A stretch of DNA of 64,000 nucleotides, taken from the NCBI RefSeq assembly GCF_041248615.1, contig NZ_CP158426.1. One strand, 5' to 3'. The stretch's first letter is position 1, and each line of letters starts with the position of its first letter. Both the position numbers and the translations under genes were made by a program. This DNA comes from Escherichia coli (GTDB lineage: Bacteria > Pseudomonadota > Gammaproteobacteria > Enterobacterales > Enterobacteriaceae). Shown piece by piece: positions 390 through 56,078 of this stretch. Under the pieces are notes generated by a model, which was given only the letters and a program-made list of their open reading frames with translations, was not told where the DNA came from and made no database searches.

Positions 390-1442
390 ATGGGAATTAG
401 TGTTCGAGTCTTGCAAGCAAATCATGGTGATTGTTTCTTAGTTAGTTATAAGAGCTCAGATAGTGTTTACAACTTGCTAATTGATGGTGGTAATAGCGCC
501 ACATTTATGTTTGGGGCTCAAGGGCGCTACAGTGGTGAGCTTAAATGTGTACTCGATGATTTGAAAAAAGAAGGTCAGAAAATTGACTTGGTTATCTTAA
601 CCCATATAGATGATGATCATATCGGTGGTTTGCTTAGGGCTTTTGAAACACCAGGTTATCTATGCCAAATGGCTTCTTCTATCTGGTTTAATTCTTCAAG
701 ATTTATCACCAAACATTTTAAGGTTGATGAAATTTCAGACAATGATGTCTGTCTTCAAAGTAACTCAACGCAGACAAGTGCTAGGCAAGGGAAGAAACTG
801 GAAAACTTACTTGATGAAATCAATTGCGAACGGCAACCCATAGTTATTGCGGGGCAGAAGTTTACAAGGGGTCCGTTCACATTCACGATCTTATCCCCTG
901 AAGAAGATAATCTACGTAGCCTTCTTCATAAGTGGCCAGATGAGCCAGATCCGGTTACGACATCCGGTGCTTCAAGGGATTATGGAATGAAATTTGAGGA
1001 TATTTTGTCTAATGATAAATTCCAGAGTGATCAATCTGTTTATAATGGTAGCTCAATTGCTTTCATCCTTGAAGCTGATGGTAAGGCTATGCTCTTTTTG
1101 GGCGATTCACATGATGAAAATATTGTCCGTAATTTACGATCTCTTGGTTTTAATGAAGGTAACAAGCTCAAACTCGACCTCGTGAAAATTTCTCATCATG
1201 GTAGCCAGTATAATACTAGCCCTGAATTTTTGTCGCTCATAGATGCGCAAAACTTCATTATATCCACTAATGGGAGTAAGCACGGACTTCCTGATAAGAG
1301 AACTATTGCACGGATTTTATCTTCAGGAGAAGGCAAAATCGGCTTCAATTATTCGCACATTATCCAGGAGATGCTTCACGAAAATGAGGTTCCATTGTAC
1401 TCTTCTCGCCTGGTAGCATTAAATGGAGAAATTAGGCTATAA
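390..1442 (+). CDS. Metallo-beta-lactamase-fold hydrolase (ComEC/Rec2-like MBL family)
   Basis: ORF track 357..1442; ATG at 390 preceded by AGGAAA; motifs LVILTHIDDDHIGG (variant of HxHxDH) and KISHHGSQYNTS typical of MBL-fold enzymes; AT-rich. Confidence 0.7.
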   Translation: MGISVRVLQANHGDCFLVSYKSSDSVYNLLIDGGNSATFMFGAQGRYSGELKCVLDDLKKEGQKIDLVILTHIDDDHIGGLLRAFETPGYLCQMASSIWFNSSRFITKHFKVDEISDNDVCLQSNSTQTSARQGKKLENLLDEINCERQPIVIAGQKFTRGPFTFTILSPEEDNLRSLLHKWPDEPDPVTTSGASRDYGMKFEDILSNDKFQSDQSVYNGSSIAFILEADGKAMLFLGDSHDENIVRNLRSLGFNEGNKLKLDLVKISHHGSQYNTSPEFLSLIDAQNFIISTNGSKHGLPDKRTIARILSSGEGKIGFNYSHIIQEMLHENEVPLYSSRLVALNGEIRL

Positions 1443-1443
1443 A

Positions 1444-2727
1444 ATGACCGCTTCAAATTTGATGGCTTCTAACGCAGTGATCGTGAACGAGGGCAGTGGT
1501 GTTCTTGTTAATGCGATGACTCAAGATTATTCATACGTACTCACAGCAAAACATGTGTTAGCGAAATCAGGTAGTCAAAATATCGTTACTAATCAATATG
1601 GTAACAGTCTTAGAGTGCTTGATGTATTGGTGGGTCAGGAAGAGCATTGCGACTGTGCTGTAATCAAAATTGAATATGTACCAACTGTTGCTCAGCAGTC
1701 CTTCCCTGCAATAGCATTACCCAATTCGGCTTTGCTAAAGTTTGTTGGTTTTCCGGGAACCGAGAGACTAAGCGCTACCCCGCTGAAAATCTATGATGGG
1801 CATGTAACAGATGTAAGGGAGGGGCTGATTAGCTTCACGATAGAAGGCAGTCCCTCAAAAACCGCAATCGATGGAATGTCTGGCGGTGGAATGTATTACA
1901 TAGTTAATGAACATCCCCTCCTTGTTGGTGTAGAATTTGGGATGGACAGTATTCGTCAAGATCTACAATATGGACGTATACAATGTAAAAGTTTAATTGT
2001 TTTTGAAGAGATAATTAATTTAAACAGTGCTGCTCCAATGGTTCCCGCTTATTTGGAGTGTTTTTCACGCTTAAAAGAATATATCTTCGATTTTAATGTT
2101 GTTGATAAAAATAGAGTTCTGAATCTGAAAAACGCATTAAATATTTTTGCAGATGAACTTATAGACAAAGGTATGCCACCACCATTTGAATTAATGTCCA
2201 AATACAAAACTGATTTGTTAGTAGGTCCATATCAAGTTGACGATGTTAAAAATAAAGAATTATGGGTTGCATATTTTGAATTTCTGATAATTTGCGCAAT
2301 TCTTGATAATGTAAGTATTGCCAATAGTTCTTATATAGAAAGTTTAGAGCGGCGTAGGAGAATTCTTTATACTCCGGATGGAAGTAATTGGGTCGGAAAG
2401 CTTGATGTAATCTTAAAAGTTGCTCGAAAGTTATTAGATAAAGATGGCATAGTAATTGTGGCATCTCCAGAAAATGGAGCCGAATTATTACCGGATGATT
2501 TTGAAGTCGATAGGGTTATAAGGAATATTGCGCGAATCGCTAATTCAGGTCCACTTGCTCCTATCGATCAAGTTGAAAAAGAGATGTATAAGAGTTTTGT
2601 ATTAACGCATCTTGAAGGGCTGAGAAAAAAATGTGTTATAAACAAAGAGAGAATGTATGCAGAAGTTGAAGCTGGCTTAGACCAACTTCAGACGTTTAAG
2701 GAAAGCTTTAATGAATTTATTAAATAA
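1444..2727 (+). CDS. Trypsin-like serine peptidase with uncharacterised C-terminal domain
   Basis: ORF track 1423..2727; ATG at 1444 directly after upstream stop (TAA 1440-1442); candidate triad His (LTAKHV), Asp (CDCAVIKI), Ser (GMSGGGMYY); about 240 aa C-terminal extension of unknown fold. Confidence 0.7.
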   Translation: MTASNLMASNAVIVNEGSGVLVNAMTQDYSYVLTAKHVLAKSGSQNIVTNQYGNSLRVLDVLVGQEEHCDCAVIKIEYVPTVAQQSFPAIALPNSALLKFVGFPGTERLSATPLKIYDGHVTDVREGLISFTIEGSPSKTAIDGMSGGGMYYIVNEHPLLVGVEFGMDSIRQDLQYGRIQCKSLIVFEEIINLNSAAPMVPAYLECFSRLKEYIFDFNVVDKNRVLNLKNALNIFADELIDKGMPPPFELMSKYKTDLLVGPYQVDDVKNKELWVAYFEFLIICAILDNVSIANSSYIESLERRRRILYTPDGSNWVGKLDVILKVARKLLDKDGIVIVASPENGAELLPDDFEVDRVIRNIARIANSGPLAPIDQVEKEMYKSFVLTHLEGLRKKCVINKERMYAEVEAGLDQLQTFKESFNEFIK

Positions 2728-3262
2728 AGAATTTGATTTGGAATTTCTTAAATCTAGATTTTCTGATGCAGATTTCTATTTTTTTGTTTCTAATGATGAC
2801 TCATCTTATATTTCATGCGTAGCATGCTATTGTGAGAGCGCTAATTACGTGGTTGCGAATTGGACAGCGATTCAGAATTATTTATCTGCTTACTACCAAC
2901 CGAAGGATGAATTAGCTCTTTGGAATATATATTTAGTTTTCTTTTGTTCCGAAAAATTACCGATTTGGGATAAGTACCTTATAGATAATGATAAGTATTC
3001 TGTCAGAAAATTAATTATTGACGGGTTAACTACTCTGCCAAGTATTTCCGAAACTGTAACTTTTCTGAACAATCATCTGCTAGGCGCAGACCTAGAATTA
3101 ACTGAAATAGAGGAGAAGAAGGAGATAGAGTTATCATTAATTGAGTATATAAGTGGAACTCCTTTAGATTCAAAGGTTGAGTCGAGAGATGAGCGTATGA
3201 GCAGAATTGATAAAATTATTAATCTAGTGAGTTCAAATAAAAATGAAAATAAAAAAAGTTGA
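2711..3262 (+). CDS. Hypothetical protein, 183 aa, middle gene of candidate operon
   Basis: ORF overlaps upstream gene by 17 nt and downstream gene by 20 nt (translational coupling); no recognisable motif. Confidence 0.5.
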   Translation: MNLLNKEFDLEFLKSRFSDADFYFFVSNDDSSYISCVACYCESANYVVANWTAIQNYLSAYYQPKDELALWNIYLVFFCSEKLPIWDKYLIDNDKYSVRKLIIDGLTTLPSISETVTFLNNHLLGADLELTEIEEKKEIELSLIEYISGTPLDSKVESRDERMSRIDKIINLVSSNKNENKKS

Positions 3263-6200
3263 AATAGAAGGCTTTCGAGCATACAGATTCAAGGAAGATG
3301 GTACTTTCGATTTTACAAATAAAGATGATACGCCATCCAATTTTGTAGCGATCTATGCACCCAATGGCTTTGGAAAAAGTTCATTCTATGATGCGGTTGA
3401 ATGGGCTATTACTCATAATTTAGATAGATTTGCGGGTGAATATAATAAAAAAAATTATGAGCAAGCTGCCAGGAGCACGAAAGAGGACGGTGTTGCACAA
3501 AAAATACTACGTAATAAAGATGTACCAGACAATATTCCTACTCGTGTAACAGTTTTCACTACTTTACCAACTCCATTCGAACAAAGTTTAGGAACAGTTC
3601 GTTCTGATTCTAGAGATATAAGAATCGGCGAGAATAAAAATAAAATCAATGGCTATTTTAGAAAAGTGGTTCTTAGTCAAGATGAAATAGACCGTTTTTT
3701 AAAAGAAGCAAAGCCGCAAGATCGTTATAAGATGTTTATGGAGAGTTTTGGAGGTGAATGGGAAAAGGCGAGACAAGAGCTAACTATACTATTGAATGAC
3801 AATAAGGCGGTTTTGTTAAATCTCGAAAAAAACAAAAATGAACTTCAGGAACAACTAGATCAGCCTGTTGATGCGTCAACATTCATACAATTTAATAAAA
3901 TAGCATCTGAACTTGTAGCAGAAGGTGAAAGTTTACCATTAGTAGATGAAACAACTATAGTTAATACACAGCATGAGCTTTTGGAAAAAATAATCACAAG
4001 AAGTCACGAAATAAATTTTTCCTTAAACAAGAAAAAAATATTGAGAGATTCGATTTCTGAGTATATTTTAAAATTTCCTGATATCAGTTTTCGTACAACC
4101 CAGATTATCGAGAAAAAGAATAGACTAGAAAAAATAAATAAAGGGATAGAAGATGTCGGTCGTTATAAGACATTTCAGTCTACTCTTGAAAAACTGACTA
4201 TCGAAAAGAAAAAGATAAGTCAGAGCTTAAATTTTATAGAAGAATTAGATGGTTTATCCCAAGAGTTTTTAAGCTTGGAATTTAACTTGGAATCAGCTCG
4301 AAAGAAACATAGAGAGATTTCATATAATTATGAAAATGAAAAAACTCTCCTTGATAATTTATTCCAAACAAGAAACCAAAATGATGCTGATTTATCTTCA
4401 ATTGACAAGCGATGCTTATCTATACGTTCTACGTTAGAAAACGCTACGGTTACTTATTCTAATATATCTAATATACAAAATAAAATTTTAAATATAGTTT
4501 CTACGCAAACAGAATTAGAGCACAAACTTAATCAAGTTAGATCCGAATACCAAAAAAACAAATCCGAATTAAACAAAGTATCAGATTTAACAATAACCGC
4601 CAAATCATTACTTTCATCAGACTTAAGTCTAATTGATTTATCTTCAGATTTATTAAAAGAACTAAACAACTTATCGCAAGAACTAAATATATTGGTCCTA
4701 CATGATCAATCAATTCATAACACACAAGAATCTCTTTCTGCACAAATGGGAGTTCACGAACGTCTAATTGCATCGGGCCTTGAGTACTTAAGTTTATGGC
4801 CGACTAATATATGTCCTTTATGTCACAAGCCGCATGACTCTGAGTCCTCTCTTAGAGAACAAGTAACAAATACTGACGTAATATCCATGCTTAGTAAAGA
4901 GAATGCAGCTAAGCTCGAGATATCCTCAAAACGGCGGTCAGAGTTAAATGGCAAGATAGAATCCATCGTACAGAAAGCCCTTGAAATTAAAATGAGTAAA
5001 CTTGAGGTATTAAGTAAAAAGGTCAATCAACAAGGAAATGAGATACATCGAGAAGAACAGCACTATACAGCTCTTTTAGCAGAAAAACAGTCTGTCCAAA
5101 ATCAGTTAAACGAGTTGCAGAAGGCTGTAGCTGGACTAACTAAAGATGAATTATTAGCTCGCTTAGATGCTGAACTTAAAGAATTAGAGGCCAAGAAAAA
5201 TGAAGTGATAAAAAACAAGCTGACCTTGACGAAAAATATTAACGTTAAAAGAACGTTGATTACAGAGTTAAGTGGGGCGATCAATTTACTTAATACGCAA
5301 ATTCATGAAATGATGTCATCATCTAACTATTTAAAAACAAAAGCTTACTCTGAAGAAAATGGCTTGTCATCGGAGTTTTTGAAAGAACATTATGATGATA
5401 AACGCCATTTTTACCTTAAAAATATAAATGGACTCAATTTTGAGATTAATAATATTACCAGCCAATTAAATGATCTTCAGAAAGCTATGATAGCCGATGA
5501 AATGTGGCTGGATTATGAAGAAATGATTTCTGAAAAAGAGAATTTCGAGGATTATATTTCTAAATCAGAAGCGGTTTTACAATCTTATTCATCATTATTA
5601 AAGCAGCATTTTGAACTACCAAAATATGAATCTTTAGTTGAATTGAAAGATTTCCTGATAAGCTCACTTGATAAAGAAACTAGGCTTTATAATGGTCTAG
5701 AGGAACGGCTTGGAAAATATAATTTATTATCAGAACTTTTGAAAACAGCAGAGTCGTTTGTAAAAAGTATTAAGTTGCAGAATGATATTAATGAAACCTT
5801 AGGTCTTATAGAAATAAGAAAAGAAGTTGATTTAGCTCTGACTAAGGAACGAAATCAAGTAATAGAGGAACTTAGAAACTTGATAAAATCTTTCTTTTAT
5901 GAGGAACTCATTAATTCTATTTATAAGAGAATAGATCCACATCCATCACTTAAGAAAGTGGTGTTTCGCCCAGATTTTGACTCATCAGATAAACCTGGTC
6001 TTAATATAGTTGTCAGTGATGAAAAAGGTGATATGGTATCTCCAATATTATTCTTTAGTGCAGCGCAATTAAATATTCTAAGCCTTAGTGTCTTTTTAGC
6101 AAGTGCTTTGCATGCAAAAGATGATAATGGAAATGTAATTGATGTGATTATGATTGATGATCCAATTCAATCAATGGATTCAATTAATATCCTATCCACA

Positions 6201-6380
6201 ATTGATCTTCTTAGAAGTATTACCGTTAGATTCAACAAACAAATAATAATATCAACACATGACGACAATTTCTTTGGCTTGCTCCAACGTAAAATCCCTT
6301 CGGAAATATTGGGTGCCAAGTTTCTTAAATTGGAGAAATTTGGGGTTGTAGTGCCTGTTGATGATTTAAATAATACATGA
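3243..6380 (+). CDS. SMC/Rad50/RecF-like ABC ATPase with long coiled coil and central CxxC motif
   Basis: N-terminal Walker A YAPNGFGKSSFYDAVEWAI; long K/E/L/Q-rich coiled-coil middle; CPLCHKP near centre; C-terminal signature-like FSAAQLNILSLS, Walker B VIMIDDP, His-switch ISTHD. Confidence 0.8.
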   Translation: MKIKKVEIEGFRAYRFKEDGTFDFTNKDDTPSNFVAIYAPNGFGKSSFYDAVEWAITHNLDRFAGEYNKKNYEQAARSTKEDGVAQKILRNKDVPDNIPTRVTVFTTLPTPFEQSLGTVRSDSRDIRIGENKNKINGYFRKVVLSQDEIDRFLKEAKPQDRYKMFMESFGGEWEKARQELTILLNDNKAVLLNLEKNKNELQEQLDQPVDASTFIQFNKIASELVAEGESLPLVDETTIVNTQHELLEKIITRSHEINFSLNKKKILRDSISEYILKFPDISFRTTQIIEKKNRLEKINKGIEDVGRYKTFQSTLEKLTIEKKKISQSLNFIEELDGLSQEFLSLEFNLESARKKHREISYNYENEKTLLDNLFQTRNQNDADLSSIDKRCLSIRSTLENATVTYSNISNIQNKILNIVSTQTELEHKLNQVRSEYQKNKSELNKVSDLTITAKSLLSSDLSLIDLSSDLLKELNNLSQELNILVLHDQSIHNTQESLSAQMGVHERLIASGLEYLSLWPTNICPLCHKPHDSESSLREQVTNTDVISMLSKENAAKLEISSKRRSELNGKIESIVQKALEIKMSKLEVLSKKVNQQGNEIHREEQHYTALLAEKQSVQNQLNELQKAVAGLTKDELLARLDAELKELEAKKNEVIKNKLTLTKNINVKRTLITELSGAINLLNTQIHEMMSSSNYLKTKAYSEENGLSSEFLKEHYDDKRHFYLKNINGLNFEINNITSQLNDLQKAMIADEMWLDYEEMISEKENFEDYISKSEAVLQSYSSLLKQHFELPKYESLVELKDFLISSLDKETRLYNGLEERLGKYNLLSELLKTAESFVKSIKLQNDINETLGLIEIRKEVDLALTKERNQVIEELRNLIKSFFYEELINSIYKRIDPHPSLKKVVFRPDFDSSDKPGLNIVVSDEKGDMVSPILFFSAAQLNILSLSVFLASALHAKDDNGNVIDVIMIDDPIQSMDSINILSTIDLLRSITVRFNKQIIISTHDDNFFGLLQRKIPSEILGAKFLKLEKFGVVVPVDDLNNT

Positions 6381-11592: not shown

Positions 11593-12133
11593 ATCTTAAG
11601 AAGCTGCAGTTGAGTCATAGCCAGCGATCAAAATTGAGAAGACAAAACCGGGGAGAGGTGCCCGCAGTTTCTGCCCCAGCTCCCATCTTCAGGAAGATGT
11701 GTTTCAGGAATGCATTCGTGATGCTGGGGATAGCGGCAAGACGATTTTCTCATCGGGTAACTCTGCGGTATCGGAACAGTTGACGACGGCAGGGTGGTGA
11801 ATGGGAACCTCAGGATGAAGCGCTCGGGCAAGAGGGATGGACTGTGCTGAAGAGAACACTGACAGAACGAGCATGATGCTTGCAAAAAGGGGACTCTGGA
11901 TATTCATTGTTTATCTCCTGATGATATTCATCGCTCCAGAGAATACGCTTGCCACTCTTTTTATTTGTTTTCCTGAATTAAAAATGCCCGGTTTTATGTG
12001 GTTCTTCCGTAAACGTTATTACATTAATTAACATCTAGTTTCTATCTCCGAAATGAGGTAAAAAAATAATTGTCGTGGTTTTTATCAAACAAATTTACCG
12101 GCAGCTCAGATCCGAACTAATACCTGGAAATTC

Positions 12134-12182
12134 AAACCCCAAACCCCAAACCCCAAACCCCAAACACCAAACCCCAAACACC
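12134..12182. repeat. Tandem heptanucleotide repeat (AAACCCC/AAACACC) x7
   Basis: Read directly: four AAACCCC, then AAACACC, AAACCCC, AAACACC; complementary strand is (GGGGTTT)n. Confidence 0.9.
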
Positions 12183-12412
12183 ATTTCACCGCTGGCGTGT
12201 AAGGGGCTCTATATCTGTTTATTCAGGGATAGTTTTTTCTCCCGTGTGATTTCCGTTCATGTATCTGCTTCCGGTTAATCGTTTCCCAGCACAACCCGTC
12301 CCGCAAGGGTAAATGGCACGCCTGCTGCGCCCTTGCGGGATGGAACGATGCCGGGAAAGCGAACCGTCAGGCGATACGAAGACGAAAATCACACCACTGA
12401 CGGAGAAAAAAA

Positions 12413-13357
12413 ATGACTATGTCCCTGCATACCAAGATAAGTGCCCCTAACACGACAGCGGCGACCAGCGTATCCTCGCTGGATCTGTCAGGCTCCTCAA
12501 AAACGAAATGTTCAACAGCCAGAACCGATATTTATCAGACTGTTACCGACAGCATAATTGCGGCGCTGGAAACCGGAGTAAAACCTTGGGTGTGTCCTTG
12601 GCAGCGAGCTCCCGGTATGTCCGGTTTACCGTCCAATTACGCCACTGGTAAGGCTTACAGCGGAATGAATATCATGTTGCTTTGGTGCAGCGCGTCAAAA
12701 CAGGGATTCTGTGATTCACGCTGGATGACCTACAAACAGGCAAAAGCGGTAGGTGGGCAGGTGCGCAAGGGAGAACACGGCACTACCGCGATTTTCTATA
12801 CCACGCTGGAAAAGGAAAATGATAACGGAGAAACTGACTATATTCCTATGCTGAAAGCATTCACTGTGTTTAATGTTGAACAAATTGACGGTTTACTCCT
12901 GAGTGATGATGCCGTTTTTCCGGCAGAGATCTTTGAGCCATTACCACGTGCAGAAGCACTTTTTCGTAGTAGCGGTGCAACCATTATTGAAAAAGGACAG
13001 AATGCTTTTTTTACACCATCAACCGACGAAATTCGCTTACCTGAACGGTATCTTTTTATTGATGCTGCTAATTTCTACGCAACCGGCCTGCATGAGCTCG
13101 TTCACTGGAGTGGGGCAAAAAGTCGGCTGAACCGTGAAATGAAAGGGAAATTTGGCAGCGAGGGGTATGCGTTTGAAGAGTTGATCGCTGAGCTGGGGAG
13201 CGCATTCCTGATGGCGGATCTGGGGATAGTTGGAGAAGTTCTGCATGACAGTTATATCGCTTCCTGGCTTAAAGCACTGAGGAATGATAAACGCTATATT
13301 TTCAAGGCCGCCAGCGCGGCATCGAAAGCACATCGCTATTTGATGGATAAAAGCTGA
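12413..13357 (+). CDS. ardC: ArdC-like antirestriction protein (ssDNA-binding N-domain plus zincin-like metallopeptidase C-domain)
   Basis: DIYQTVTDSIIAALETGVKPW N-terminal ArdC-type motif; HExxH motif GLHELVHWSG in C-terminal half; hairpin after stop. Confidence 0.75.
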   Translation: MTMSLHTKISAPNTTAATSVSSLDLSGSSKTKCSTARTDIYQTVTDSIIAALETGVKPWVCPWQRAPGMSGLPSNYATGKAYSGMNIMLLWCSASKQGFCDSRWMTYKQAKAVGGQVRKGEHGTTAIFYTTLEKENDNGETDYIPMLKAFTVFNVEQIDGLLLSDDAVFPAEIFEPLPRAEALFRSSGATIIEKGQNAFFTPSTDEIRLPERYLFIDAANFYATGLHELVHWSGAKSRLNREMKGKFGSEGYAFEELIAELGSAFLMADLGIVGEVLHDSYIASWLKALRNDKRYIFKAASAASKAHRYLMDKS

Positions 13358-13651
13358 GTAGCAAAAAGCCGCAAAGGAATGCGGCTTAATGGGCTGGGGG
13401 TACTAAACCAGTAAAGGTTTAGTCAGTAATATTAGTGAAGCAGAGCAAGTATCGAACAGTCATATTCCTGTAGTGGTATTAAGACAACCTTAAGAAGGGA
13501 CTGATGTATAGCTACTCTTGTATACCCATCCATGGAAAATTCGGTTGTATTGCCGGGTTGATATGTGCAGGTTGGTCCCGACCCAAGAAGTTTTTACTGT
13601 GAAAATTGTCAAACTATATCAATGTGGTAACAGCTTCTCTTGTCCCTTTGG

Positions 13652-14002
13652 TTATTTCAAATTGGACCGGGCTATCTGTTGCAACACGGTTGCTCTGCTT
13701 GAAACAGAGTTAACATATGCAACATCAGATACTTTGAGTTTGATCAGATCATAGCCTCGTAGCTTACTGTCCAAGGTCATATTGAACAGAGTTAAATCGC
13801 GCATTTTACCTTCCATTTCAAGCCTGATTCGGATCCCCCCTGATATGAGATATCTGAAGTGGTCTTTTTGGTCAGTGATACTTACAATACGGTCTTTGTC
13901 CCACGGTGACGTGTTCATACTCAAAGCTCCTGTAATGTTGGAGATTTGAGCATGGTTATCCCTCATGAGCGAGGAACGGACAATGTCCCTTGCGCGATCC
14001 AA
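13652..14002 (-). CDS. Hypothetical protein, possible recombinase-like remnant
   Basis: 116-aa ORF; weak resemblance (LRGYDLIKLKVSDV) to tyrosine recombinase core motif; no clear start context. Confidence 0.25.
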   Translation of the reverse strand: MDRARDIVRSSLMRDNHAQISNITGALSMNTSPWDKDRIVSITDQKDHFRYLISGGIRIRLEMEGKMRDLTLFNMTLDSKLRGYDLIKLKVSDVAYVNSVSSRATVLQQIARSNLK

Positions 14003-14200: not shown

Positions 14201-14995
14201 ATGGAATCAGAAGAAACGAAAGAAGAGAGTTATCAACAGCGTTCGGAGTTTATCAGAAAAATAATTCAACAGCCTGTTGAGGGTGTCATATCTTCATGCA
14301 CTATACCAAAAAAAATAATTCAATTTTGGGATTCATCCAATACTATCCCTAATGATGTCAGACATTGCATGAAATCATGGCGTATCTTAGAACCTTTTGG
14401 GTATGAGTATTTACTATATGATTTCGTTAGCGCCCAAGAATTTATTAAACATAATTTGGGTGAAACATACAGTGAAGCTTTTGCCAAGTGTACTCATCCT
14501 GCTATGCAATCAGATTATTTCCGATTATGTTATATCTCGGTAAACGGGGGATTTTATGTTGACACTGATGATGTTTATCTGGGTAGTGAGATAAGTAGTT
14601 TTTTCACGGATGATAAGTTAAAAATACAACCTTTATGCTACGATATTTCCACCGATTCTATGATTCCACCAGAAATTTTTACAAAGGAAAATACTTATGA
14701 AGAATCTTGGATTTTTTATTTCAACAACAACCCGTTAATTGCTCCGCCTCATCATGTTATCATTGATAAGGCACTAGAGCAATCCACATACTTACTTAAT
14801 AAATCAAGCTATCCTCTCACAGATATTCAGTCAACAACTGGTCCTGGTAATCTATCTAAATCTATTTTCTCGTGTCGCGAGGAAATAGATTTATTATCCC
14901 AGATTACGGTAGTATCAAACTGGCAAGATATTGCAGAAACTAAGTGGGATTTAGAATACAGAGCTGATTCTAGAAATTGGCGCTTGATGAATTAA
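14201..14995 (+). CDS. Glycosyltransferase with DXD motif (Gly_transf_sug-like)
   Basis: IIQFWDSSN...CMKSW and GGFYVDTDDVY motifs; ATG 14201 with GAAGGA upstream (track start is TTG 14186); AT-rich. Confidence 0.65.
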   Translation: MESEETKEESYQQRSEFIRKIIQQPVEGVISSCTIPKKIIQFWDSSNTIPNDVRHCMKSWRILEPFGYEYLLYDFVSAQEFIKHNLGETYSEAFAKCTHPAMQSDYFRLCYISVNGGFYVDTDDVYLGSEISSFFTDDKLKIQPLCYDISTDSMIPPEIFTKENTYEESWIFYFNNNPLIAPPHHVIIDKALEQSTYLLNKSSYPLTDIQSTTGPGNLSKSIFSCREEIDLLSQITVVSNWQDIAETKWDLEYRADSRNWRLMN

Positions 14996-15010: not shown

Positions 15011-17212
15011 ATGAACATTAAAAATAATTTGAAAGGTATTAGCCGTTTTTTTTATTCTTTTTACTTACGCTCTCGGTTACTTCTCCCAGCGCAAAAATCA
15101 TCGACCTTTAATACATTAAATCAGAATGAAGGCGTTATTAGCAGGATTTACGCTATAAACTTAGAACGGGAAGCGATTAGATGGGCAGATTTAAATAAAG
15201 AACTGGGTAAAATACTAGATAAATCTAATAAAAAATTAACGAGCCAATTAACCAGATTCTCTGCTATAAACGCCAAAGAAATGTCAGACATTCTCAATGA
15301 GGAAGAGGTTATTCCTTATTATACTTTAGCAGACCAGTTGTACGTTGACCCTCAACCAAAAATCTTACCCGATAAATTTGATCTCGATGTCCCTATAAAA
15401 ATGAGTAAAGCGGAAATTGCTGTAGCATTATCGCATCTAAATGTTATTAGGCTTGTTGCAGAAGGTTCTGATGCATATGCTTTAGTGCTTGAGGATGACG
15501 TGTATTTTGAAAGAGATTTTGCCAAAACCTTAGATGCTGCTTGGTCTGAAATGATTCAAGCTGACAGATCTTCACCTGGTTTTGATATCTTATATTTGTC
15601 ATTTAAAGAGGTTATGAATGGCGCGAAAAAGAAAATTATTTCGAAAAGCATATTTAAACCAGAGCGAGGGTTATGGTATTTTTCAGGATATGTATTATCT
15701 AAGAAAGGAGCAAATAAAATCCTCTCACTCCTCCCAACTTATGGACCAATTGACTTATGGATAAATCATCAATTTGAGAAACTCGATGTGAGGGCAGTAT
15801 ATAAGTCGATCATTTCTCAGAGGTTGGATTTTAACTCTTCAAATTCCTATTCAATATTACCTACCTTAGTGAAGATTGGTATTATTGACAATGAAAAAGC
15901 TTCCAGTTTTAATGAACTTCCAAATTATTGGCCTGTTTTTGCATTTGGTGTAAGTGGTTCGGGTATTTCTTCTTTGGGTATGGCACTATCAATGCTTGGC
16001 TATAAGTGTTGTAGTGATATTGATAGACTTCCCAATGCAGACTTAAAAAATCTATTAAGTAATTCAGAGCAGAATGAATTCAATGCTTATGTAAATGTTG
16101 GCTGTCTCAGTAAGTATATCGGCATATTAAAAAAACAATATCCAAAAGCAAAATTTATAATTACCACGAGTGAATCAAAAGAAATCGAAGATGTTATTTT
16201 TAATATAATTGAGGAGATCGTTGATACTGACTATGTTGTATTGCATTCAGATGAAAAAAACAAATGGAAGGTTATATGTGAATACCTTCAATGCCCACCA
16301 CCTATTTCAGCGTACCCAGAAATGGCTGACATTATTCCTAGGCAGATTATAGATATCACCAGTGCAGCACAAATCAATAATTCAGAAATTAACATGATAC
16401 ATGACATTTCCCCTTGGATATTAGAAAGAAAGAATTTTTCAGGAAATGGTTTTTTTATAAAAGATAATCCGAAGAGAATTGAAAAAGAGCTTGCTGATTT
16501 CTTCATTAATGATTCACTACAAAATATTAATAATAACTATTGGGAAATTCGCGATGATACTTTCCCTGGAAATCTTGGACTGTTTCGACCTCAAAATGTG
16601 ATTCAAAATGATATTAGTGGTTTAGGTCTTGTAGTTAAGGAGGAACAGTTAGGCGTTAGAGAGTTTAGTGCTGCTGCGATTTCAAGTAGAATGAAGTTCC
16701 TATATGGCCGATTTGAAGTGTCCCTACGAGCGGCAAATGTTGCAGGGATAGTAACCGGCTTCTTTTTACATAGAGATTCGCCTCGTCAAGAAATCGATAT
16801 TGAGTTTGTTGGAAATCGATCTGATCATATGTTGATCAATGTTTTTTATAATCCTGGTGATGAAGGTGCAAAGTTTGATTATGGATATCGTGGTACACCA
16901 ACTCTTATTCCTTTAGGTTTTGATGCTTCTGAAGAGTTTCATGATTACATGATTGAATGGAGTCCTGATGAGATAAAATGGTTTGTGGATGGAGTTATGG
17001 TTTATCGTAGAGGAGTTTGGGGGCCTACACCTATACCTCATTTACCCATGACCCTTCATGCTAACACTTGGCCAACCCGTTCCAAGGAACTGGCGGGACG
17101 TCTCCACACGCGTTCCTTACCCTGTATCACTTATATTAGGAAAATATGTATTGATGCAACAATGGATGTTAATAATCCAAAATTAAATGACCAGACAGTA
17201 GTGGCTGGTTAA
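15011..17212 (+). CDS. Multidomain protein: GT25-like glycosyltransferase N-domain, central region, GH16-like C-terminal domain
   Basis: N-terminal RIYAINLEREAIRW and LVLEDDVYFE resemble family 25 glycosyltransferases; C-terminal EIDIEF matches the GH16 ExDxxE catalytic motif; 733 aa; AT-rich. Confidence 0.65.
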   Translation: MNIKNNLKGISRFFYSFYLRSRLLLPAQKSSTFNTLNQNEGVISRIYAINLEREAIRWADLNKELGKILDKSNKKLTSQLTRFSAINAKEMSDILNEEEVIPYYTLADQLYVDPQPKILPDKFDLDVPIKMSKAEIAVALSHLNVIRLVAEGSDAYALVLEDDVYFERDFAKTLDAAWSEMIQADRSSPGFDILYLSFKEVMNGAKKKIISKSIFKPERGLWYFSGYVLSKKGANKILSLLPTYGPIDLWINHQFEKLDVRAVYKSIISQRLDFNSSNSYSILPTLVKIGIIDNEKASSFNELPNYWPVFAFGVSGSGISSLGMALSMLGYKCCSDIDRLPNADLKNLLSNSEQNEFNAYVNVGCLSKYIGILKKQYPKAKFIITTSESKEIEDVIFNIIEEIVDTDYVVLHSDEKNKWKVICEYLQCPPPISAYPEMADIIPRQIIDITSAAQINNSEINMIHDISPWILERKNFSGNGFFIKDNPKRIEKELADFFINDSLQNINNNYWEIRDDTFPGNLGLFRPQNVIQNDISGLGLVVKEEQLGVREFSAAAISSRMKFLYGRFEVSLRAANVAGIVTGFFLHRDSPRQEIDIEFVGNRSDHMLINVFYNPGDEGAKFDYGYRGTPTLIPLGFDASEEFHDYMIEWSPDEIKWFVDGVMVYRRGVWGPTPIPHLPMTLHANTWPTRSKELAGRLHTRSLPCITYIRKICIDATMDVNNPKLNDQTVVAG

Positions 17213-17490: not shown

Positions 17491-18342
17491 TCAGGAGGCA
17501 TAAACTGAAAGGAGTTCTTTAGCTGCCAATTGACCAAGTGCGTTGGCTGCAAAAGGACTGTCACCTGTCAGTACCTTACGATCTTTGTATACGCTTCCTT
17601 TAATATCATCATTAACAATATTCATCCCCATTTGCTTAAGTGCATCGCCAAAATACCATGTGAGATGGCCCGGCATATAACCAATGTCAGGCGTCTGCTT
17701 ATCAGCTGAATCAGGGAAAGCGCAAATAGAATACTCTTTTAGAGGGTTTTCACCATTGCGCAGCGAAAGGAATGCTGCTGGGCCATGGCAAAGGGATATG
17801 ACGAAGCGGTCATTGTCCATGAACCAGCGAAGAGTATCGGCTACTGCGCTGCTTTCTGGCAGCCCAATCAGTGCGCCGTGGCCACCAGGAATAAACACGG
17901 CAGCATATTCACTTTGCTTGTTCAGGCTATTCAATACATCAGACAATTTTTCAGGATTTTGGAACTTGTCTCTATACCGGCTGAAAAATGGCATAACTTT
18001 CTCATCCTTGTGCGGCATGGCCCAGTATTCGAACTTTGTCATGTAACCTGAGATTGTCGCAATGTCAAAATCAAAACCAGCAGCATGCAGGTGATACATT
18101 GGAATAAGCGTTTCAACAGGATGGTTTCCCGTTGAGAACAGAGCCCCGCTATCAGTCATCAGGTAACGCTCATCCGCAGCGATGACCAGCACCTTCTTCC
18201 CTCCCATGCACTGTTTGGGATAGTCGTAGTCACTAAGGTCAGATACGGGGCTGGTAAACTGACTAAGGGAATAGTCAGAGGGGAAAAATGCGTTTTCTTC
18301 AGCATGATCCACTTTCGGATGTTTACTTTTATCATTTGTCAT
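17491..18342 (-). CDS. hchA: Hsp31 / glyoxalase III (DJ-1/PfpI family), divergent HchA homologue
   Basis: 283-aa product from MTNDKSKHPKVDHAEENAFFPSDYSLSQ; strong but not identical similarity to recalled E. coli HchA (KFEYWAMPHKDEKVMPFF, FVISLCHGPAAFL, TGDSPFAANALG); track ORF 17491..18504 extends upstream into the IS2 flank. Confidence 0.85.
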   Translation of the reverse strand: MTNDKSKHPKVDHAEENAFFPSDYSLSQFTSPVSDLSDYDYPKQCMGGKKVLVIAADERYLMTDSGALFSTGNHPVETLIPMYHLHAAGFDFDIATISGYMTKFEYWAMPHKDEKVMPFFSRYRDKFQNPEKLSDVLNSLNKQSEYAAVFIPGGHGALIGLPESSAVADTLRWFMDNDRFVISLCHGPAAFLSLRNGENPLKEYSICAFPDSADKQTPDIGYMPGHLTWYFGDALKQMGMNIVNDDIKGSVYKDRKVLTGDSPFAANALGQLAAKELLSVYAS

Positions 18343-18514: not shown

Positions 18515-18880
18515 ATGATTGATGTCTTAGGACCGGAGAAACGCAGACGGCGTACTACACAGGAAAAGATCGCTATTGTTCAGCAGAGTTTTGAACCGGG
18601 AATGAAGGTCTCCCTTGTTGCCCGGCAACACGGTGTGGCAGCCAGCCAGTTATTTCTCTGGCGCAAGCAATACCAGGAGGGAAGTCTTACTGCTGTGGCC
18701 GCAGGAGAGCAGGTCGTTCCTGCCTCTGAACTTGCTGCTGCCATGAAGCAGATTAAAGAACTCCAGCGCCTGCTCGGCAAAAAAACGATGGAAAATGAAC
18801 TCCTTAAAGAAGCCGTTGAATACGGGCGTGCAAAAAAGTGGATAGCGCACGCGCCCTTATTGCCCGGGGATGGGGAGTAA
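18515..18880 (+). CDS. insC: IS2 transposase OrfA (InsC)
   Basis: [29 protein letters not shown]... matches recalled IS2 InsC; ATG at 18515 inside track ORF 18470..18880. Confidence 0.9.
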
Positions 18881-19743
18881 GCTTAGTCAGCCGTTGTCTC
18901 CGGGTGTCGCGTGCGCAGTTGCACGTAATTCTCAGACGAACCGATGACTGGAAAGATGGTCGCCGCAGCCGTCACTCAGATGATACGGATGTGCTTCTCC
19001 GTATACACCATGTTATCGGAGAGCTGCCCACGTATGGTTATCGTCGGGTATGGGCGCTGCTTCGCAGACAGGCCGAACTTGATGGTACGCCTGCGATCAA
19101 TGCCAAACGTGTTTACCGGATCATGCGCCAGAATGCGCTGTTGCTTGAGCGAAAAACCGCTGTACCGCCATCGAAACGGGCACATACTGGCAAAGTGGCC
19201 GTGAAAGAAAGCAATCAACGATGGTGCTCTGACGGGTTCGAGTTCCGCTGTGATAACGGAGAAAAACTGCGAGTCACGTTCGCGCTGGACTGCTGTGACC
19301 GTGAGGCACTGCACTGGGCAGTCACTACGGGCGGCTTCGACAGTGAAACAGTACAGGACGTCATGCTGGGAGCGGTGGAACGCCGCTTCGGCAACGAGCT
19401 TCCGGCGTCTCCAGTAGAGTGGCTGACGGATAATGGTTCATGCTACCGGGCTAATGAAACACGGCAGTTTGCCCGGATATTGGGGCTTGAACCGAAGAAC
19501 ACGGCGGTGCGGAGTCCGGAGAGTAACGGCATAGCAGAGAGCTTCGTGAAAACGATAAAGCGTGACTACATCAGTATCATGCCTAAACCAGACGGGTTAA
19601 CGGCAGCAAAGAACCTTGCAGAGGCGTTCGAGCATTATAACGAATGGCATCCGCATAGTGCACTGGGTTATCGCTCGCCACGGGAATATCTGCGGCAGCA
19701 GGCCAGTAATGGGTTAAGTGATAACAGGTGTCTGGAAATATAG
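18838..19743 (+). CDS. insD: IS2 transposase OrfB (InsD), DDE integrase domain
   Basis: Overlaps insC 3' end in a different frame as expected for IS3-family frameshifting; sequence matches recalled IS2 OrfB. Confidence 0.9.
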
Positions 19744-20342: not shown

Positions 20343-21098
20343 TTAAATTTGCATTGAGGTAGCGATATCGAGACGTTGCAGTTCGTCAATCGTGTAGATG
20401 CGGAACACATTCCTGTGGCGGGTTTCCAGTGGGATGTGTTGATGATTCACGATGACGTACTGGATGCTGTCAAACAGCCGTTCAAGACCGAGTTTTTTTT
20501 GCGGGTCTGGCACAATATAAAAAACGTAGATCCAGTCTTTACGCGTTCGGGCCAGTAAATGACTGGCTATGATCGACTGGTAACGGGCTTTGGTTTTCAG
20601 ATGGCGCTCGGTCTCGATGGCGATCACCGTGCCGCTGGGGAGGGCAATTAGCCCGTCCGGGCGGTGACTGACCTGATAACGACTCAGGAAAGTTGTGCGA
20701 TCGCCATGTATCCAGCCGCATGCGCCTTTTTTTTCGAGGATGATCCGCGCCATCTGATTATCAAGGTGATGTTCCAGCGTCCAGCCTGTGAGTTTTGAAG
20801 GCTCAAACCGGGCCGGGAAAATTTCATCATCAGGCTGTATTACGACCGCCAGCCCGTCGTTGGTTATTCCCCACAATGAAATTTTCTTCGTACGTGATAC
20901 CAGGACGTGTTTTTGTATTAACCCCATTCCCTCAACTTTTGAAAGCAGGGAATACAGTGATTTATGATCCCTGAAGCCGAACAGCAGCATCAGTGTTGTA
21001 AAATCACTGTACGTTTCTTCTTTCAGGAAATTCAGCAGTCGTATTATCTTCTCGCGATGTCGGGTCTGGCGCTCGCGGTATGCGGTGATAAGCATCAT
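20343..21098 (-). CDS. Hypothetical mobilization protein, possible MobC-like small relaxase
   Basis: 251-aa ORF 8 nt downstream of coupling-protein gene; function inferred from position only. Confidence 0.35.
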   Translation of the reverse strand: MMLITAYRERQTRHREKIIRLLNFLKEETYSDFTTLMLLFGFRDHKSLYSLLSKVEGMGLIQKHVLVSRTKKISLWGITNDGLAVVIQPDDEIFPARFEPSKLTGWTLEHHLDNQMARIILEKKGACGWIHGDRTTFLSRYQVSHRPDGLIALPSGTVIAIETERHLKTKARYQSIIASHLLARTRKDWIYVFYIVPDPQKKLGLERLFDSIQYVIVNHQHIPLETRHRNVFRIYTIDELQRLDIATSMQI

Positions 21099-21106: not shown

Positions 21107-23032
21107 CTAAAAGTTCAGTAACGAGGGATGATCCTCTTTACCTGCACCTGCACCTGCACCTGCACCTGCACTTGTTGTTGTGTGTTTCTCGTCCGGCTTG
21201 TCAAAAAAGAGATCGGGTTGTGTTGTCGTGATAACTGATGTTGATGACGGTCCGGATGACATTTCTTCCTCGTCAAAATTCAGGGCAATGTTGACTCTTG
21301 CGGCGGTGGCGGCAACAGCGGGCGATACGGCACAGATCGCCAGTTCCCTTTTTTTAACCCTGATGGGAGAAATTAGTGAAGCAGAGGGGAGGGCTTTGGT
21401 GGTGAATATAAAACTGACAAAATCAGGCAGGTTCAGCACCATATTACTGTCGATAAAGAAACGCTCGGCCTGCCTGATGGTGCGTTCACTATCGATAGTC
21501 TCTGTCAGCACCGCATCTGTTTTGGCTTTGCGGACTTCGTCATCGACTAATATGGTGCCTGACATTCTTGCCACCCAGTCAGCGGTATCAGGGTCCATGA
21601 CACGATAAACCAGCTTGAATTTGGCATTCTCCACAACTGCACCCACCACGGCATCGCTTTTCAAATCCGCCGGGCAATCTTTTAAATCGGCAATGGATTG
21701 GTGGTCCATAATAATGTGTACACCTTTATCCCGTGCCGCACCTAAGCCTTCCAGCGCAGGCTTGGATAAATGGTATTTCAGTTCGGAAAGGTAAATAGCA
21801 ATAGGGCGGGGTGTGTGGTTTACCCGATCGCGCCTTTCTGCCAGCTGGTACAGGCGAACCAGCAGCATGCGCTGAGCGGTAATAATTTTGCTGTTGCGCA
21901 TCGAGCCAATCACATAGCAGCAACCACCGTTATCAAATATTGTATTGAGGGAAAATCCTGCCGGTGCATTGATGGCATTGAGTAAGGCCAGCTCCTCAAT
22001 TTTCCCGAAAAAGGCTTTTATCTTATCAGCGATACTTTGGACGTATTCCCCGTTATACACATCCCGAATGGTTGAGGTCGTATTACGGGCGACAAATTGT
22101 GCAGCTATTCGGGCTGCTTTGCGATCGTCAATGCGATAAAAGTCAGACTCTTGTCCTTTCTCTGCCAGACTGAAACCCGCGACAAAAAGTTCTTCCAGTT
22201 CATCAGCGGTGATATCGTTAATCAGGTTTAGCTGGTATGCCTGTTTCCTCAGGTCAATTAGGGCAAAGGATTTCCCTGCATCCTCGCAGGCTTTCCGGTA
22301 AAGGTGTGGGGCCCACTCATCATCTTTGGGGTCCATAACAAATACGCCTTCACCGGCCAAAATACTCTGATAAAGTAATATCCCGGTGGCCACCCCTTTA
22401 CCGGCCCCCGTGGTCCCGATGATATCGGCATGTTGTTTTTGCCAGTCTTTTAACGGCAGGTACATCGGCTGTTTCATTCTGTTCATGCCGATAAAAATAC
22501 CTTTACTCAGGTTAATATAATCCTCCGGGTTATAGTGCAATGTTTCCGGTAGCAGCGATTTCACCGTTCGGACATCAGTACGTAATTCCCTTTCCAGAGT
22601 GGTTTTTCTGACGAACCGACTTTTTACTTTATCGAGTTCAGGTGTTAACACCCTGCGCAGAAGAATATGGAAAACAAAACCGGCTGCGGTAGAGGTAATC
22701 AGTATCAGCCAGGAGAGGACAGTATTGCTGGTGGCTATCTTTATTCGGTATATCCATTGAAATAATTCGTTCACCACGGGCGCTATTGTGCCAAACAAAA
22801 AGCACAGTATGGAAAAAACTATCACCAGCTTTTTCCATAAAGGGGCTTTGAGTCGTTCATCGCTTTTCATCGACGCGAAGAATGGCATGGTCAGCCCTGA
22901 GAATAGCGCCAAAATAGGTTGATGCTGGTGCATAAAAACGAGCAGTCCCAGCATGCCGTCCACTATCGGTGATAGTGAAACGATCAGCTTATTTAACACC
23001 ATAATGCTTCCTTTATCGGCCATTCGCCCCAC
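21107..23032 (-). CDS. Type IV coupling protein (VirD4/TraD/MobB-like)
   Basis: N-terminal TM helices; Walker A GTTGAGKGVATG; 641 aa; C-terminal Gly-Ala repeat. Confidence 0.85.
   Translation of the reverse strand: MGRMADKGSIMVLNKLIVSLSPIVDGMLGLLVFMHQHQPILALFSGLTMPFFASMKSDERLKAPLWKKLVIVFSILCFLFGTIAPVVNELFQWIYRIKIATSNTVLSWLILITSTAAGFVFHILLRRVLTPELDKVKSRFVRKTTLERELRTDVRTVKSLLPETLHYNPEDYINLSKGIFIGMNRMKQPMYLPLKDWQKQHADIIGTTGAGKGVATGILLYQSILAGEGVFVMDPKDDEWAPHLYRKACEDAGKSFALIDLRKQAYQLNLINDITADELEELFVAGFSLAEKGQESDFYRIDDRKAARIAAQFVARNTTSTIRDVYNGEYVQSIADKIKAFFGKIEELALLNAINAPAGFSLNTIFDNGGCCYVIGSMRNSKIITAQRMLLVRLYQLAERRDRVNHTPRPIAIYLSELKYHLSKPALEGLGAARDKGVHIIMDHQSIADLKDCPADLKSDAVVGAVVENAKFKLVYRVMDPDTADWVARMSGTILVDDEVRKAKTDAVLTETIDSERTIRQAERFFIDSNMVLNLPDFVSFIFTTKALPSASLISPIRVKKRELAICAVSPAVAATAARVNIALNFDEEEMSSGPSSTSVITTTQPDLFFDKPDEKHTTTSAGAGAGAGAGKEDHPSLLNF
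21137..21166. repeat. Hexanucleotide tandem repeat (CACCTG)x5 within coupling protein C-terminus
   Basis: Read directly; encodes (Ala-Gly)n on the minus strand; in-frame repeat. Confidence 0.85.
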
Positions 23033-23270
23033 GACATCGCCCCCTCAATTCGCCCCACGGTGTTGGGCGAAAAGCTGGGGTGAAAGCAGGGGCAAACAGA
23101 GGTGGCTGCGGTGCAGCCATGTGCCGGTAGATAGACTTTCCGGCCCGAAACGACGTGCACCAGTTCATGCGGGCTGGACGCCCTTATTGCCTGGCGCATG
23201 GGGGTAATGGCGTGGCTGTACGCCGCGCCAAAACCCCCAGGGTCAACGGCGGCACACCGTCGCCCGCTAC

Positions 23271-23633
23271 GCGCGACCAACCCCTTTAAGACGCGCGTTT
23301 CGCCTGTTTTTTTCTCGCAAGCTCCAAAAAACGGGAACGCTGCTTTAAAGGGGTTGGTCGCGCCTGATTGGTAATATCCCCGCTGGGGCGGGAAATATTA
23401 CCTGGCTTGACGGTGTGCGGGGCAAGCCCCCCACAAAAAACGGCACGTGGGCGTGCCTTTTTGCTCGCTGGGGCGGCAAAATTTTTGCGGCTCCCCCGGC
23501 CTGCTTAATTCGCTGTGGGCGAATGTGCGCAGATGGATGCGGTACCTGAAAATTAACAATTTCTGCGAAATTGAATTTTCTGTCCGCGTTCCACTGGCTT
23601 ATTTCACGGCTTAACAATTTCTCCGAAATTGAA
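23271..23633. other. Candidate oriT / relaxosome assembly region with inverted and direct repeats
   Basis: 20-bp near-perfect inverted repeat (23271-23290 vs 23344-23363); two copies of TTAACAATTTCNCGAAATTGAA (23553-23575, 23611-23633), each containing dyad CAATTTC-N3-GAAATTG; lies between coupling protein gene and T4SS genes. Confidence 0.5.
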
Positions 23634-23709
23634 GCCAGAAATTAGCCAGCCTCAACCCCGCCGTCTGTCAGTCTGTGGCGCTGTGAGGCATAGTGTAATG
23701 TCCGGTGGT

Positions 23710-49855: not shown

Positions 49856-49931
49856 TGGCTCCTCTGACTGGACTCGAACCAGTGACATACGGATTAACAG
49901 TCCGCCGTTCTACCGACTGAACTACAGAGGA
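49856..49931 (-). tRNA. asnT: tRNA-Asn (anticodon GUU)
   Basis: Reverse complement reads TCCTCTGTAGTTCAGTCGGTAGAACGGCGGACTGTTAATCCGTATGTCACTGGTTCGAGTCCAGTCAGAGGAGCCA; matches recalled E. coli tRNA-Asn; next to mtfA as at the E. coli asnT locus. Confidence 0.95.
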
Positions 49932-50829: not shown

Positions 50830-50922
50830 CGTTTTGCTCGCAAACTCGTCACTTGAACAAAATTGCACGGACAGGGACTGTTAAAATGCCAAATTTCCTG
50901 GCATCATGGCAACCATCTGAAC

Positions 50923-51012
50923 GGAGAGATGCCGGAGCGGCTGAACGGACCGGTCTCGAAAACCGGAGTGGGGGCAACTCCACCGGGGGTTCAAATCCCC
51001 CTCTCTCCGCCA
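50923..51012 (+). tRNA. serU: tRNA-Ser (anticodon CGA)
   Basis: 90-nt GGAGAGATGCCGGAGCGGCTGAACGGACCGGTCTCGAAAACCGG...CCCCCTCTCTCCGCCA with long variable arm. Confidence 0.9.
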
Positions 51013-51064
51013 AAATTCAATCACTTACACATCATTAAGTCAGTGACAAAAATCACACTTGGAA

Positions 51065-52293: not shown

Positions 52294-52351
52294 AGCTATA
52301 TCTCATAACCGCCGCTAACTATATACGGTTAGCGGCAATTAGGGTTGAACA

Positions 52352-54793: not shown

Positions 54794-54886
54794 TATTGGT
54801 AAACCTCATCACAGATTTAAGGGTGAACAAATCTCTGCCATTGCTGACATATAAGAATGAAACTGGATATTTATTACGGTGCTGTT

Positions 54887-56049: not shown

Positions 56050-56078
56050 ACTGATTCCTCGCGGTGCTACTTCGCTTA

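Follow-up and report, generated by a model that had tools for sequence, protein, structure and literature searches.

A hairpin of about 280 nucleotides (nt) that encloses the start of an ardC gene is probably a new sequence class of Frpo-like single-strand promoter cassette, which would serve the early expression of ardC in recipient cells. The hairpin lies in a 64,000-nt stretch of Escherichia coli DNA (contig NZ_CP158426.1, assembly GCF_041248615.1; hereafter the window) that carries an integrative and conjugative element (ICE) of the ICEKp1/ICEEc1 type with a CloDF13-like MobB/MobC module. The initial annotation had marked a small stem-loop next to an ArdC-like gene, and had suggested that it could be a single-strand promoter of this anti-restriction gene. 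Both ArdC domains were found in the gene product, and the 10-bp inverted repeat (CCCGCAAGGG, 12300-12309; CCCTTGCGGG, 12330-12339) with its 20-nt loop is present in the sequence, but it is located 73 nt 5' of the ATG (12413) and is not immediately upstream of the gene, as had been stated. The promoter proposal is the reading favoured by the evidence, namely a size and energy like those of the plasmid F promoters, the folding of the template strand, the fixed register of the start codon and the copies in Shewanella, against which stand the want of a convincing -35/-10 pair and of significant sequence homology to Frpo. The anatomy had been badly under-described: instead of a 10-bp stem, the real structure has about 130 bp per arm and contains the ribosome-binding site (RBS), the ATG and 17 codons.

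The perfect repeat is 11 bp long (12299-12309/12330-12340) and can be extended to 14 nt with 93% complementarity (12296-12309/12330-12343). Taken alone it is unremarkable, because about 16 separate loci in the window carry a comparable perfect inverted repeat (at least 10 bp, with a loop of 3-30 nt), against about 1.9 in first-order Markov simulations. It is, however, the apex of a far larger imperfect palindrome of about 280 nt, which is far beyond chance. Six nested inverted repeats identified by a repeat finder together span 12186-12464, and the DNA fold of the window copy is one long hairpin with 101 Watson-Crick and 6 G·T pairs. The folding energy is -80.9 kcal/mol for the minus strand and -78.1 kcal/mol for the plus strand, corresponding to z scores against dinucleotide shuffles of about -10.5 and about -11.0, respectively, and none of the 100 shuffles folds as well. 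The whole window was also scanned with 300-nt sliding folds, using DNA parameters and the cut-off of -75 kcal/mol that was applied in PMC12672017 for mining single-stranded DNA (ssDNA) promoters. Only the ardC hairpin and the region of the presumed origin of transfer (oriT; 23000-23700) fell below this value (window mean -34, standard deviation 10), and in a related Citrobacter plasmid and a Proteus plasmid the ardC hairpin and the region upstream of mobB were again the sole outstanding loci.

The gene-proximal arm of the hairpin covers the RBS GGAG (12402-12405), the ATG and the first 17 codons of ardC. At the other end of the structure, the apical GCAAGGG...CCCTTGC stem is the part that is best conserved as far as Shewanella. 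The middle base of the apical loop varies (C, A or T) and the G and the A are fixed, the Morganella and Shewanella copies having GGA on a CGC/GCG stem. With both flanking bases fixed and the middle one free, the loop reads as a GNA triloop, which exists only on the minus strand. Trinucleotide loops of the GNA type are characteristic of DNA mini-hairpins of very high stability.

A survey of homologues, with one genome per species, covered 79 loci with ArdC relatives of 96-51% identity, and about 55 of them have the same hairpin geometry, with the base at ATG-228 and ATG+52 and the apex at ATG-88. For the analysis of covariation we used 57 minus-strand sequences (alignment A1) with the structure taken from the window copy, which replaced an RNAalifold prediction on the MAFFT alignment that had yielded just 52 pairs because of indels in the distal arm. 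The 102 pairs of A1 are formed in 87.9% of the cells, compared with 43-51% when the partners are slid by 1-3 columns. Changes on both sides occur in 38 pairs (21.5±3 in shuffles, 0 of 500 of which reach 38), and 97 cells are compensatory (45±5 in shuffles). Hardly any variation is seen in the gene-proximal arm or in the upper third of the distal one; the lower distal arm varies and follows its partner. Beyond the base of the hairpin, the flanks are unrelated between loci. Two loci show other arrangements: in Brenneria sp. 4F2 (L019, 155-449) the coding start of ardC is kept with unrelated DNA 5' of about ATG-10 and the hairpin is gone, and Erwinia sp. JUb26 has, about 4 kb 3' of ardC, an additional incomplete hairpin that matches profile positions 1-182 (L029, 11043-11224).

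The hairpin is present in 274 of 5,426 complete E. coli genomes, and its non-coding part matches 452 of 72,556 plasmid records, chiefly from Klebsiella, E. coli, Salmonella and Enterobacter. A long imperfect palindrome, found moreover in multiple copies in Shewanella, is what would be seen if a miniature palindromic mobile element (MITE- or ERIC-like) had inserted by ardC, or if the palindrome were a functionless product of chance. In Enterobacterales, however, the hairpin occurs only with ardC, at a median of one place per E. coli genome, and inspected plasmid copies lie upstream of an ArdC-like gene, as in the one match that was opened, on an IncR/IncFIA plasmid. The hairpin also diverges in step with ardC, contains the gene start and shows compensatory changes. 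Both the mobile element and the chance palindrome were rejected on copy number and covariation, and we consider them extremely improbable.

The strand that is selected for folding is the minus strand, the template of ardC. It is the more stable one in 57 of the 58 distinct copies, which come from many Enterobacterales, with a mean difference between minus and plus strand of -11.7±4.8 kcal/mol. Summed over the 58 copies, folding of the minus strand gives 504 G·T pairs and leaves 20 A·C single mismatches; the figures for the plus strand are 137 and 97. In the alignment, the minus strand has 652 G·T cells, compared with 121 that would be G·T on the plus strand. The other mismatches of the minus-strand fold are mainly A·G, T·T and G·G, those of the plus-strand fold being C·T, A·A and C·C. 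Plasmid F, whose transferred strand is known, provided a positive control: in the same scan of its leading region, the hairpins located before the methylase gene, klcA, ssb (Frpo2) and ygeA (Frpo1) reach -82 to -89 kcal/mol, and each of the four is 6-10.6 kcal/mol more stable on the transferred strand. Strand-biased folding (G·T versus A·C), validated on F, offers a cheap general test for the transferred strand of conjugative elements.

The same bias bears on the idea of an element that works in double-stranded DNA (dsDNA), such as a palindromic operator or a cruciform bound by a regulator, in the manner of the ArdK-bound CUP repeats of IncN leading regions. Palindromes are typical of operators, and the CUPs are conserved repeats upstream of leading-region genes (PMC6289460), but a dsDNA site cannot select between G·T and A·C, and the bias is 5:1. 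In addition, 280 bp far exceeds the size of an operator and no regulator gene accompanies the hairpin, which makes a role of this kind very unlikely. The IncN CUP elements themselves were set aside as a different, double-stranded kind of element, and the plasmid hits proved to be ardC loci in IncR/IncF plasmids and not CUPs.

A search for extra copies with a profile of the hairpin alignment revealed that Shewanella loci carry several of them, three in one locus (L063) and two in each of two others (L061 and L067), all in the orientation seen at ardC and all with the minus strand favoured, by 7.5-17 kcal/mol. The genes that follow these copies encode a 624-aa ParB_N-like protein, proteins of unknown function and ArdC. 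These proteins are otherwise unrelated and have about 30 N-terminal residues in common ('MT.SI..THT', as MTNSIQ..THT.. or MTHSITTPASHTK..), because the module itself supplies the RBS, the ATG and the first codons. The hairpin, RBS, ATG and first codons therefore behave as a portable early-expression cassette. In the window, residues 1-38 of ArdC (12413-12526) form a low-complexity N-terminal extension, with the ArdcN domain beginning at residue 39. Distant ArdC homologues can be aligned only from residue 30-40 on, indicating that the extension encoded by the stem is specific to the clade that bears the hairpin; it looks like a by-product of the lower stem.

That the start codon keeps a fixed register speaks for a function in expressing the gene rather than in priming alone. 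If the hairpin were only an ssi signal, the transferred strand would recruit RNA polymerase, primase or PriA at this point for priming of the complementary strand, with no role in the expression of ardC. Any structure with a function in ssDNA would account for the strand bias and the energy, the boxes of the candidate promoter are weak, and similar hairpins that favour the minus strand occur in the oriT region with no plus-strand gene downstream. Frpo itself, according to the citation given in PMC12672017, was first described as a generator of primer RNA (Masai and Arai 1997). A priming site, however, needs no start-codon register, whereas the ATG lies 52 nt inside the stem in all homologues and each extra Shewanella copy provides a different gene with an RBS and an ATG. 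For these reasons we regard a pure priming site as unlikely.

Scans for sigma-70 consensus sites and terminators found none on the ardC strand upstream of ardC and, as the flanks are unrelated between loci, the expression signals must lie inside the module. A candidate single-strand-specific promoter can be read on the distal arm, which would be the non-template arm. This candidate is conserved and retains the positions that matter most (TTG, A-11 and T-7), with two bulged bases and one G·T pair interrupting its -10 AACGAT. The double-stranded equivalent, TTGCGG-17-AAAGCG (12333-12361), is without the T-7, which would make the candidate specific to the folded form. Our hypothesis, drawn from these boxes, places the predicted start at about 12366-12369, with a leader of about 45 nt. 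A strict -35/-10 scan detected nothing in the ardC hairpin and nothing in the four hairpins of F, and is thus uninformative; a relaxed scan was equally weak on the proven hairpins of F.

If the hairpin acts as such a promoter, the following sequence of events may be proposed. The ICE would be transferred as the minus strand from oriT, so that mobB, mobC and the body of ardC would enter the recipient first and the hairpin next, snapping back into a duplex-like stem. The host RNA polymerase would initiate within the stem, toward its base, and ardC would be transcribed before the complementary strand exists. Frpo and the remaining ssDNA promoters of the F and IncI plasmids act in this way. The mRNA started in the stem would be without the distal arm, leaving RBS and AUG free. 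After conversion to dsDNA the promoter would vanish, and any read-through transcript, carrying both arms, would fold (about -140 kcal/mol) with its RBS and AUG buried, which would leave ardC silent in established hosts. The predicted plus-strand RNA with both arms has an energy of -139.9 kcal/mol, with RBS and AUG paired, that of the minus-strand RNA is -149.3 kcal/mol, and the z score of the RNA fold is -6.7 for the central part of the hairpin. From this pairing we infer that read-through RNA is untranslatable, and that only stem-initiated transcripts would express ArdC. The requirement for the R388 ArdC in the recipient and not in the donor (PMC7213743) fits an early transient burst of this kind.

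These RNA energies could also point to an element that works at the RNA level, either an ardC mRNA leader that controls translation or a folding antisense RNA of minus-strand sequence. The plus-strand RNA does bury the RBS and AUG, G·U pairs are good in RNA, and the bias toward the minus strand would fit an antisense RNA. The mRNA strand is, however, the less well paired one in 57 of the 58 copies, this comparison of RNA energies resting on the window values and the sign count, and an antisense RNA with both arms would need a promoter within each of the unrelated downstream genes. No Rfam family was matched in a covariance-model scan, which returned just chance-level microRNA hits of 18-21 bits, compared with gathering scores of 80. 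Near-perfect double-stranded RNA of about 130 bp is also a substrate of RNase III and not a usual regulator. We therefore judge regulation at the RNA level to be improbable, to about the same degree as priming alone, and retain the single-strand promoter cassette as the preferred interpretation.

The polarity of transfer assumed above was examined in the context of the ICE. All the features of the ICEKp1/ICEEc1 type are found in the window, namely integration at tRNA-Asn, virB1-virB11, the oriT nic motif, mobB-mobC and the opposed ardC, together with cargo and an AlpA-like excisionase; the yersiniabactin locus is absent, and other cargo is present instead. In the ICEKp1/pCRY-type family, ardC is the sole backbone gene opposed to virB and mob (PMC2262945). 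We observed ardC on the plus strand opposite mobC and the type IV coupling protein gene in about 38 related loci, mostly 0.2-0.6 kb apart, and ardC is normally about 4 kb from oriT in relatives. The presumed oriT region is the most hairpin-prone DNA of the window, reaching -101.5 kcal/mol per 300 nt, and in each of 20 related loci the minus strand of its hairpins is the more stable one, by 2-10 kcal/mol. It contains a 19-bp perfect inverted repeat (GCGCGACCAACCCCTTTAA, 23271-23289; TTAAAGGGGTTGGTCGCGC, 23345-23363), each arm of which matches the nic site of CloDF13 at 9 of 11 positions (10-11 of 11 in relatives; motif GG(G/T)TGGTCGCG). The CloDF13 nic site is 5'-GGGTG/GTCGGG-3' (PMC5935869), and for pMET1 and HPI-ECOR31 an inverted repeat with two nic sites has been described, with the remark that either strand of pMET1 might be transferred (PMC2262945). 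The motif on both arms likewise gives a candidate nick site on both strands.

Two other approaches to polarity were discarded. A minus-strand match of TTTTTGTGGG proved misleading, the genuine CloDF13-like motif being the one on both arms, and the Shewanella loci offered no relaxase to orient them, since the neighbouring 1205-aa protein has AAA_30 and Toprim domains without a recognisable relaxase domain. A 2026 preprint considers the leading region of MOBC elements undefinable for lack of data. The hairpin itself predicts, but does not prove, the polarity oriT→mobB→mobC→ardC in MOBC elements of the ICEKp1/pCRY type. Transfer of the minus strand from oriT would bring in mobB, mobC and the body of ardC before the hairpin, in the same order of gene and then hairpin as in F.

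Several observations weigh against the single-strand promoter cassette or the polarity that it implies. The best -35/-10 pair in the stem scores just 3+3 of 12 and is not significant alone, and the arm that would be the non-template one is the less conserved arm in its lower half. An nhmmer search of the hairpin against the F leading region gave no hit, the same search against the published Frpo/ssi list recovered short apex motifs only, and Smith-Waterman scores against known ssDNA promoters were within the shuffled range, so that there is no significant similarity to the F hairpins or to the listed Frpo/ssi elements beyond an apex motif of 10-40 nt. Deamination of cytosines, on a strand that often exists in single-stranded form, could account for part of the G·T excess; such an origin would still identify the minus strand. 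Regarding the polarity, the window's own oriT-region hairpins show no strand bias (+0.4 kcal/mol), the nic motif on both arms of the inverted repeat leaves the direction of transfer undecided, and the nicked strand of CloDF13 itself points away from mobB, which is the opposite of what the model needs. Finally, 7 kb of cargo separates mobC from ardC in the window ICE.

Table 1. Position of the hairpin, its parts and the associated features (window coordinates unless a Shewanella locus is named).
Feature	Position	Strand	Description or basis
Whole imperfect hairpin, about 280 nt	12186..12464	-	Nested inverted repeats, DNA folds, covariation, strand bias
Gene-proximal arm	12330..12464	-	Nearly invariant; complement of ardC 5' leader, RBS, ATG and codons 1-17 (alignment A1)
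Distal arm	12186..12309	-	Upper ~47 nt conserved; lower part variable, tracks the proximal arm via C/T and A/G changes
Apical stem-loop of the initial annotation	12299..12340	.	11-bp perfect stem and 20-nt loop
Apical mini-hairpin	12319..12329	-	Family consensus CGCA-GNA-TGCG; window copy reads CGCAGCAGGCG
Candidate single-strand-specific promoter	12278..12306	-	Distal (non-template) arm: -35 TTGCGG (12306→12301), 17 nt, -10 AACGAT (12283→12278)
Microsatellite CAAACCC x7.3	12133..12183	-	Abuts the distal base of the hairpin; minus strand (GGGGTTT)n
ardC	12413..13357	+	314 aa; PF08401 (ArdcN, ssDNA-binding) 3.3e-41; PF18818 (zincin-like metallopeptidase) 3.9e-47; RefSeq 'ArdC family protein'
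Cargo between ardC and mobC	13517-13918; 14201-14995; 15011-17212; 17491-18342; 18515-19743		Integrase remnant; GT32 glycosyltransferase; GH16 hydrolase; hchA; IS3, respectively
mobC, MOBC relaxase	20343-21095	-	Convergent with ardC
mobB, coupling protein	21107-23002	-	Convergent with ardC
Presumed oriT region	23000..23700	.	0.7-kb non-coding DNA upstream of mobB; extreme hairpin-forming locus
Tyrosine integrase	48423-49694		Annotation
tRNA-Asn	about 49856-49931		Annotation
Shewanella copies, L063	371-635, 4233-4493, 6636-6897		Profile matches
Shewanella copies, L061	5-286, 2025-2302		Profile matches
Shewanella copies, L067	4293-4457, 6657-6898		Profile matches

The microsatellite that adjoins the hairpin reads on the minus strand as a telomere-like, quadruplex-capable (GGGGTTT)n. 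It has 20.3 copies in the 99.7%-identical ICE of E. coli YF-1, compared with 7.3 in the window. Expansions were found in 7 of 54 related loci, with four different units (GGGGTTT, GGGATTT, GGGTTTT and GGGTTT), in all of which the minus strand, and never the plus strand, is the G-rich one, and many other loci have 1-2 seed units. A more far-reaching scheme, which we put forward only as a tentative possibility, would make the hairpin a fourth, hitherto undescribed class of ssDNA promoter, a self-contained cassette of hairpin, RBS, start codon and leader peptide that could serve any early gene. In this scheme ICEKp1 and the ICEs of the high-pathogenicity island (HPI), as well as pCRY/pMET1, would send the sense strand of their own mob/virB genes, the relaxase side would be the leading region, and a (T3G4)n quadruplex on the same strand might delay conversion and tune the duration of promoter activity. 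A leading region on the relaxase side, if true, would be opposite to both the textbook rule and CloDF13.

In Klebsiella, E. coli and Yersinia, genes for yersiniabactin and for resistance are disseminated by ICEKp1/HPI-type elements and related plasmids. The hairpin is a concrete, mutable handle on the survival of restriction at entry and on which end of the element enters first, as it predicts the transferred strand and predicts ardC to be the sole backbone gene expressed from ssDNA. If this is true, ssDNA promoters extend beyond the IncF and IncI plasmids. We found no description of the ardC hairpin element in the searchable literature.

Other annotated features of the window include a cluster of four genes at 390-6380, for a ComEC/Rec2-like protein, a 1045-aa AAA ATPase and two proteins of an 'ABC-three component system'. 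This cargo, located at the far end of the ICE, is a candidate defence system. At the other side (about 50900-64000), beyond tRNA-Asn and mtfA, there is a tRNA-Ser followed by the remnant of a lambdoid (Rac-like) prophage with a frameshifted integrase, exonuclease, dicB, ydfABC, hokD and rusA.

Among known systems, we compared the ardC hairpin with the class 1 elements, Frpo1/Frpo2 of F and ssi1-3 of ColIb-P9/pESBL. They are alike in being hairpins of about 300 nt and -80 to -90 kcal/mol, located upstream of early establishment genes and on the side of the gene that is distal to the presumed oriT, and in both the folding strand is the template, with an advantage of 6-12 kcal/mol over its complement. 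Repeated copies before successive genes are known for Frpo1/Frpo2 in F and ssi1-3 in ColIb-P9 (PMC9849209, PMC12672017), and the ardC-type hairpin shows them in Shewanella only. The differences concern the gene start, the promoter boxes and the backbone: about 30-100 nt lie between the end of an F hairpin and the ATG, whereas the ardC hairpin contains the RBS, the ATG and 17 codons; no canonical -35/-10 pair was found in the ardC hairpin; and it belongs to a MOBC ICE/plasmid backbone, whereas the Frpo/ssi elements belong to MOBF or MOBP plasmids. The CUP repeats of the IncN plasmids pKM101/R46 are similar in being conserved repeats before several leading-region genes, including anti-restriction genes (PMC6289460), but they are described as double-stranded operator/promoter elements of ArdK, which sets them apart.

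The class 2 (ardA/klcA) and class 3 (M.EcoGIX) hairpins of pESBL and F resemble the ardC hairpin as homology-independent hairpins that pass the -75 kcal/mol criterion upstream of anti-restriction genes (PMC12672017). Their pairwise similarity to it is not above that of shuffled controls, and their transcription starts were mapped by 5' RACE (PMC12672017), whereas the start given for the ardC hairpin is a predicted one. The klcA hairpin of F has ACCCTTGCA and a GCGAAGC mini-hairpin at the same structural position as that of the ardC hairpin. The closest described elements are two low-certainty 'Frpo*' candidates, Frpo*2 and Frpo*4, from an island of an insect-gut metagenome (Samuel et al. 2024), which also lie upstream of an open reading frame and have a recognisably related apex (ACAAGGC-CGCCGCAGGCGTGCACTTCA-GCCTTGT, compared with GCAAGGG-CGCAGCATGCGTGCACTTC-ACCCTTGC in the ardC hairpin). 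Just about 38 nt can be aligned, with an E value of 0.0017 in a very small database, and the candidates were defined in intergenic DNA only and were not tied to ardC, to strand bias or to MOBC elements. Just 3' of the apex, the ardC hairpin, Frpo1/Frpo2, the klcA-type hairpin and the candidates of Samuel et al. share a short motif in which CATTTA is unpaired and the CCC(C)T[TG]G after it is paired (together CATTTACCC(C)T[TG]G); in the comparison with class 1 the paired part reads CCCT[TG]G.

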